Below are positions 21,534 through 21,765 of a stretch of 64,000 nucleotides of DNA, one piece after another. This DNA comes from Escherichia coli. GTDB lineage: Bacteria > Pseudomonadota > Gammaproteobacteria > Enterobacterales > Enterobacteriaceae. A program made the position numbers and the translations under genes. Location of the stretch: the NCBI RefSeq assembly GCF_017348835.2, contig NZ_CP071375.1. One strand, 5' to 3'. The notes beneath the pieces are model-generated. The model saw only the letters and a list, made by a program, of their open reading frames with translations. It did no database searches and was not told the origin of the DNA. Each line of letters starts with the position of its first letter. Within the stretch, counting starts at the first letter, position 1.

Positions 21534-21552
21534 ATAATAAGAATCATTGTTA
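21534..21552. promoter_or_regulatory. Putative Fur box upstream of ydiE
   Basis: GATAATAAGAATCATTGTT closely matches the Fur consensus GATAATGATAATCATTATC. Confidence 0.5.
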
Positions 21553-21573
21553 TATCAATTATTATTAATTTTT

Positions 21574-21765
21574 ATGCGTTATACGGATAGCAGAAAACTC
21601 ACGCCTGAAACGGATGCCAATCACAAGACCGCTTCCCCGCAGCCTATTCGGCGAATTTCCAGCCAGACACTGTTAGGTCCGGATGGCAAACTGATTATCG
21701 ATCATGACGGGCAAGAATATCTGCTCCGTAAAACTCAGGCTGGCAAGCTGCTGTTGACCAAGTAG
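21574..21765 (+). CDS. ydiE: HemP-like small protein
   Basis: 63-aa reading frame starting MRYTDSRKL inside track ORF 21547..21765. Confidence 0.75.

Follow-up and report, generated by a model that had tools for sequence, protein, structure and literature searches.

We identify the 19-bp sequence at positions 21533 to 21551 of a 64-kb stretch of the E. coli chromosome (hereafter the window) as, very probably, the Fur-bound operator of the ydiE promoter, through which ydiE would be repressed under iron-replete conditions by occlusion of RNA polymerase. Because Fur binding and iron control of ydiE are already known and published, the finding is correct but ordinary, and its main value is that of a validation case, in which a real Fur operator was recognised from sequence alone. 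It also confirms that a 63-aa HemP-family protein of solved structure is part of the small core Fur regulon, and that this holds even for E. coli K-12, an organism not known to have a hemin-uptake system.

The gene order in the window is ppsA-ppsR-aroH-ydiE-selO-ydiV, and the spacer between aroH and ydiE, within which the operator lies, is 131 bp in length. The features of the locus are as follows.

aroH, ending at 21442: gene for DAHP synthase, identified by ORF and Pfam searches.
21449..21470, plus strand: hairpin GCCCATTCC-TGAT-GGGATGGGC, directly after the aroH stop, read from the sequence.
21574..21765, plus strand: ydiE (hemP-like), 63 aa and stop codon, identified by ORF and Pfam searches and the RefSeq hemP/ydiE annotation.
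21769..23205, minus strand: selO (ydiU), convergent to ydiE, identified by ORF and Pfam searches.
23268..23981, minus strand: ydiV.

Using a 1301-bp query that covers about 1.3 kb around the box, 5422 of 5426 complete E. coli genomes were matched with 95-100% identity, and in those genomes aroH, hemP (= ydiE) and selO are the annotated genes. The comparison between species is based on 12 usable loci, obtained by a YdiE scan of species-representative genomes: they come from Escherichia (E. whittamii and cryptic lineages among them), six species of Citrobacter, and Salmonella enterica subspecies arizonae and diarizonae. In each of these related loci, just as in the window, ydiE is located between aroH and the convergent selO. 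The first-pass annotation of this DNA had called ydiE a small hemP-like gene, which was borne out by the match of its product to the Pfam hemP family PF10636 (E = 2e-15; 56.8 bits against a cutoff of 25; residues 27-63, aligned with the full 37-position model). The crystal structure PDB 4YNX, an entry titled 'uncharacterized protein YdiE', contains a chain with 100% identity to this product. Hemin-uptake genes (hemR/hmuR and similar) were found beside ydiE neither in the window nor in the 12 related loci; adjacency to a hemin cluster is a contextual feature, and membership in PF10636 does not need it. An alternative ydiE start at TTG 21547, giving a 72-aa ORF, was rejected: both RefSeq and the 4YNX construct use ATG 21574, and the added residues show no protein-level conservation in the other genera.

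The hairpin at 21449..21470 is probably the terminator of aroH, and as such it would insulate ydiE from aroH transcription. In K-12 it reads TGAC-GGAATGGGC and forms a perfect 9-bp stem, while the strain of the window has a G-T wobble; in the alignment it is kept in most Escherichia and some Citrobacter, and not in Salmonella. A terminator scan of positions 21380-21900 called no site, and the aroH hairpin was missed because its T-run is short. At the other end of ydiE, the stop codons of ydiE (ending at 21765) and selO (ending at 21769) are only 3 bp apart with no terminator-like site found between the two genes, so that each transcript must either end within the coding region of the opposite gene or form an antisense overlap with the other transcript.

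The elements in and around the operator, together with the position of Fur as mapped in vivo, are listed below.

21533..21551, plus strand: core 19-bp Fur box GATAATAAGAATCATTGTT, 15/19 identical to the consensus GATAATGATAATCATTATC.
21542..21554, no strand: published Fur ChIP-exo peak placed on the window, -32 to -20 from the ydiE ATG.
21527..21532, plus strand: upstream hexamer AATACT (AATATT in K-12), which makes a 14/19 match, shifted by 6 bp, at 21527..21545.
21558..21569, plus strand: conserved AT-rich block ATTATTATTAAT, with the reverse hexamers ATTATT (5/5) and ATTAAT (4/5).

Gao et al. (2023) determined the Fur ChIP-exo sites and the fur-deletion transcriptomes of nine E. coli strains (PMC10164565). 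Their Dataset 2 includes an intergenic ydiE peak at 1787605..1787617 in MG1655, 1791295..1791307 in W3110, 1733997..1734009 in BL21 and 1945549..1945561 in CFT073, and lists one for 042 and Sakai as well; the MG1655 peak is marked with condition 'R', that is, iron-replete only, and as reported by Seo et al. too, and in the other four mapped strains Fur was likewise at ydiE under iron-replete conditions only (PMC10164565). Relative to the RefSeq position of the ydiE ATG (1791327 in W3110, 1734029 in BL21 and 1945581 in CFT073), the published peak extends from -32 to -20 in these three strains, and the MG1655 peak would do the same if its listed coordinates are those of U00096.2, with an offset of 1976 bp to NC_000913.3. 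Since the spacer aligns without gaps, the peak corresponds to 21542..21554 of the window, where it covers the 3' half of the box and extends just past it. This is the same locus as the catalogued Fur site of E. coli ydiE (b1705; Seo et al. 2014; Gao et al. 2023, PMC10164565), the peak of which overlaps the box, and the five spacer differences between the strain of the window and K-12 leave the box unaltered. We found no in vitro Fur footprint or EMSA on E. coli ydiE in the literature, and the table of Troxell enters 'No' for published direct Fur binding to Salmonella ydiE (PMC3212961).

The published data mapped here demonstrate not only iron-replete occupancy by Fur in vivo but also the derepression of ydiE in fur deletions. 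In eight of the nine strains, deletion of fur raised ydiE 5- to 280-fold, with log2 fold changes over wild type of +2.87 in MG1655, +8.14 in W3110, and +5.24, +2.91, +7.08, +3.20, +2.23 and +5.16 in six further strains, and in BL21 the value was -1.10; ydiE was thus placed in the 36-gene core Fur regulon and in both the Fur-1 and Fur-2 iModulons (PMC10164565). In Salmonella Typhimurium, ydiE has a predicted Fur site and was up 7.4-fold in a fur mutant, and among the earlier iron and Fur evidence on ydiE cited in the same paper are McHugh 2003, Bjarnason 2003 and Tsolis 1995 (Fur titration) (PMC3212961). The first-pass suggestion that a small iron-regulated protein is encoded between aroH and selO therefore agrees with the ChIP-exo peak and with the derepression in both species, and the test of fur dependence that it proposed had, in effect, already been published with a positive outcome (PMC10164565, PMC3212961).

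One may suppose that Fur does bind here, but that its main target is a transcript other than ydiE, such as aroH read-through, the convergent selO, or an antisense RNA from a minus-strand promoter. In favor of this, ydiU/selO was up by log2 1.6 in the fur deletion of W3110 and aroH changed slightly (PMC10164565), and a promoter-like match on the minus strand, running from 21553 to 21525, overlaps the box. We consider this very unlikely, since in MG1655 the shift of ydiE (log2 +2.9) is far larger than those of its neighbors aroH (-0.48) and ydiU/selO (+0.32) (PMC10164565). Furthermore, the convergent orientation of selO puts its promoter at the far end of the gene, where a separate Fur peak sits near ydiV; read-through from aroH would have to pass the hairpin directly after that gene; and the minus-strand match is at the level found in shuffled sequences.

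Even less room is left for the view that the operator is shared with, or used mainly by, an AT-preferring regulator such as H-NS, OmpR or Rcs-dependent factors, with Fur in a minor role. Rcs control of Salmonella ydiE is indeed entered in the table of Troxell (PMC3212961), modulation by OmpR has been published for the Fur-regulated hemP promoters of Yersinia, and BL21 behaves anomalously despite its bound Fur. Against this stand the facts that the deletion of fur alone is sufficient for derepression of ydiE in the eight strains, 5- to 280-fold, and that ydiE co-varies, within the Fur iModulons, with ent, fep and fhu genes (PMC10164565).

The sequence of the box agrees with the in vivo data. 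A Fur-box-like palindrome matching the Fur consensus at most positions, about 20 bp upstream of the ydiE start, had been noted in the first-pass annotation, and the consensus match indeed turned out to be 15/19, a score that no other 19-mer on either strand of the window attains. The site had been set to begin at 21534, one base later than its true start at 21533, and the distance from the end of the box to the ydiE ATG (21574) was measured to be 22 bp; palindrome is a generous term for the box, with 5 of 9 pairs self-complementary as against 9 of 9 in the consensus. The sequence GATAATAAGAATCATTGTT occurs once in the window, and the runners-up are five matches of 14/19, one of which, at 21527..21545, is this operator read 6 bp further upstream. 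When the 7-1-7 model (TGATAATnATTATCA) is applied instead, 12/14 is obtained at 21532, a value that no other site of the window exceeds but that is reached more than once.

The match to the Fur consensus exceeds chance and is statistically exceptional. After dinucleotide-preserving shuffles, 0.1 matches of at least 15/19 are expected per window, and when the 131-bp aroH-ydiE spacer alone was shuffled, this level was reached 0.18% of the time (P ~0.002). Base composition contributes to some extent, because the 54-bp AT-rich core has a G+C content of 17%, and a score of at least 13/19 appeared in 16% of its shuffles; nevertheless a score of at least 15/19 was still rare, being reached in 0.74% of shuffles of this core alone.

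For measurement of column conservation, we used an alignment of 14 sequences from Escherichia, Citrobacter and Salmonella, from which the following values were obtained.

21533..21551, box: 17/19 columns invariant, mean column identity 0.97.
21443..21500, upstream spacer: 1/58 columns invariant, mean column identity 0.62.
First 38 coding bases of ydiE: 7/38 columns invariant, mean column identity 0.67.

Judged from this alignment, the box is the most conserved stretch of the aroH-ydiE intergenic region across the three genera. It was present in 12 of 12 related loci, and the form found in Citrobacter and Salmonella, GATAATAATAATCATTGT(T/G), matches the consensus at 16/19, better than that of E. 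coli. Between the box and the start codon (21552-21573), 8 of 22 columns are invariant, and two conserved islands lie beside the box, AATTA..CTTGC at 21501-21513 and ATTATTATTAAT at 21558-21569, the latter of which is retained in spite of a spacing to the start codon that differs from genus to genus. Five of the six positions of the upstream hexamer (21527 and 21529-21532) show either no change or conservation of 90% or more. That the box is a chance match in an AT-rich promoter region, with the iron and Fur response of ydiE being indirect (for instance through RyhB or another regulator), can be dismissed as a very slim possibility: several matches of 13-14/19 in the window do fall inside genes and are probably meaningless, but this box stays near-invariant in three genera while its AT-rich surroundings drift, and Fur was located on it by ChIP-exo in MG1655, W3110, BL21, 042, Sakai and CFT073 (PMC10164565).

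Within E. coli, the box is identical in MG1655, W3110, BL21 and CFT073. The five differences between the strain of the window and K-12 are all in the spacer outside the box, and the stretch from the box to the ATG is identical; they include the change of CATAAT to a perfect TATAAT at 21524 and of T to C at 21531 (ATATTG to ATACTG). The TATAAT and ATACTG variants were also found in a few other strains, for example PE164 and F2_81, and an identity of at least 99% to the 74-bp query was observed in 5 of 4150 genomes. These 4150 genomes, from a total of 5426, were those matched by megablast with the 74-bp and 42-bp queries, and 3811 are identical over the 42 bp. The shortfall from the 5422 genomes matched with the long query is most likely due to the 28-bp exact word that megablast needs (an example is the CFT073 variant ATATAAATT), and not to absence of the site.

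The operator may extend beyond the core box. The phased hexamers that flank it score 4-5 of 5, so that up to about seven hexamers can be counted between 21527 and 21569, and the 14/19 match shifted by 6 bp is the pattern expected of a GATAAT-type hexamer array. By its sequence, the ATTATTATTAAT block is probably an extension of the operator. For the promoter itself, the following candidates on the plus strand were considered.

21509..21515, plus strand: conserved CTTGCTC, a candidate -35 (TTGCTC) 17 bp upstream of GATAAT 21533-21538.
21524..21529, plus strand: alternative putative -10 hexamer, TATAAT here, CATAAT in K-12 and CATAAA in BL21.
Sigma-70 candidate (a): TTGCTC at 21510-15, 17-bp spacer, and GATAAT at 21533-38, the first hexamer of the box; conserved across genera.
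Sigma-70 candidate (b): ATTACT at 21502-07, 16-bp spacer, and TATAAT at 21524-29 (CATAAT in K-12).
Sigma-70 candidate (c): TTAnnn at 21503-08, 17-bp spacer, and TAATAT or TATTAT at 21526-31.

Around the candidate -35 of (a), no variation was seen at C21509, T21510, T21511 or G21512, and conservation of C21513 reaches at least 90%, while the hexamer at 21524-21529 used by (b) is poorly conserved outside Escherichia. Candidate (c) is best in Citrobacter (TTAACA-17-TATTAT), and it is without the final T in the strain of the window. Because no indel was found between 21503 and 21551 in any aligned sequence, conservation cannot discriminate among the three candidates. A scan of 21380-21900 with the promoter consensus called no plus-strand promoter, so the promoter assignment rests on manual reading together with conservation. 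On the minus strand, a promoter-like match of 9/12, ATAACA-17-TATTAT, overlaps the box and faces the 3' end of aroH; it is no better than matches in shuffled sequences (mean 0.6 per region).

All three candidate -10 hexamers, at 21524-29, 21526-31 and 21533-38, are located within or immediately beside the operator. An operator placed over the -10 and/or +1 is the classical arrangement for repression by Fur, and from this arrangement we infer the following mode of ydiE control. When iron is sufficient, Fe2+-Fur dimers bind the 19-bp box at 21533..21551, and probably also the adjoining hexamers at 21527-21532 and 21558-21569, in an array of up to about seven NATWAT-type hexamers. Since the operator would overlap the -10 and the transcription-start region of ydiE, the bound Fur should exclude RNA polymerase and keep ydiE off. 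When iron is scarce, Fur would leave the operator and a monocistronic ydiE mRNA would be made.

BL21 is the only strain of the nine in which ydiE was not derepressed by the fur deletion, though Fur is bound at -32 to -20 as in the others. Compared with K-12, the spacer of BL21(DE3) carries one SNP, located 4 bp upstream of the box, in which the T at the position corresponding to 21529 (NC_012971.2 position 1733984) is replaced by A and CATAAT becomes CATAAA; the YdiE protein accession of BL21 is the same as that of W3110. If candidate (b) is real, the -10 has lost its critical final T through this SNP, which would explain the missing derepression. The SNP may therefore represent a natural knock-out of the -10, and if so it would place the true -10 at 21524-21529.

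A second Fur site may be associated with ydiV. The sequence CAGAATGATAAAGATTCTC at 23948..23966, inside the first codons of ydiV (feature span 23943..23966), matches the Fur consensus at 14/19. A second ChIP-exo peak, listed for ydiU/ydiV as 'intragenic', was reported in W3110, 042, BL21, Sakai and CFT073 (PMC10164565); in those five strains it lies 2400-2401 bp from the ydiE peak and coincides with 23948..23966. In MG1655, the peak entered for ydiV is located some 120 bp farther upstream. The ydiE operator and the equally conserved ydiV peak may form a paired Fur-controlled module round selO. YdiV has been reported to modulate the DNA binding of Fur together with SlyD, so a feedback loop is conceivable. 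The combined proposal that the BL21 SNP is a knock-out of the -10, leaving ydiE alone of the core regulon not derepressed, and that the ydiE and ydiV sites are such a paired module, with YdiE taking part in iron-stress signalling rather than hemin uptake, is speculative, and we hold it to be improbable. Another sequence with 14/19 identity to the consensus, ATTCATCATAATCATTATA at 36848..36866, scores 12/14 in the 7-1-7 model and falls towards the 3' end of an ORF of 632 aa (35054..36952); lying within this ORF, it was dismissed as a probable chance match.

In comparison with known systems, the ydiE operator would, as judged by sequence, resemble those of fepA-entD, fhuA, cirA and tonB in having a GATAAT-type 19-bp box or hexamer array in candidate overlap with the -10 and +1, and like the promoters of the core iron regulon it is bound by holo-Fur when iron is replete and derepressed after deletion of fur. 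In contrast to these classical systems, the product of ydiE is a 63-aa protein that is neither a transporter nor a siderophore enzyme, and the gene is monocistronic, wedged between aroH and selO, both of which are unrelated to iron. The closest parallel in gene type is hemPRSTUV (hmu) of Yersinia, in which a small ORF of the HemP family (64 aa in Yersinia) also follows a Fur-repressed promoter, with the Fur box at the -10 region; but hemP of Yersinia is the first gene of its operon and is co-transcribed with hemin receptor and transporter genes, whereas ydiE is an orphan. HemP of Stenotrophomonas, ChuP of Chromobacterium and HmuP of Bradyrhizobium likewise are small PF10636 proteins under Fur or iron regulation. 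For these three, unlike E. coli YdiE, a role in the regulation of hemin-receptor expression has been demonstrated or proposed. A YdiE fragment 100% identical to the E. coli protein (coverage 0.8) was also detected on the 417-bp contig NZ_POTZ01001146.1 of 'Streptomyces sp. NTH33'; this contig is almost certainly E. coli DNA that contaminates the Streptomyces assembly.
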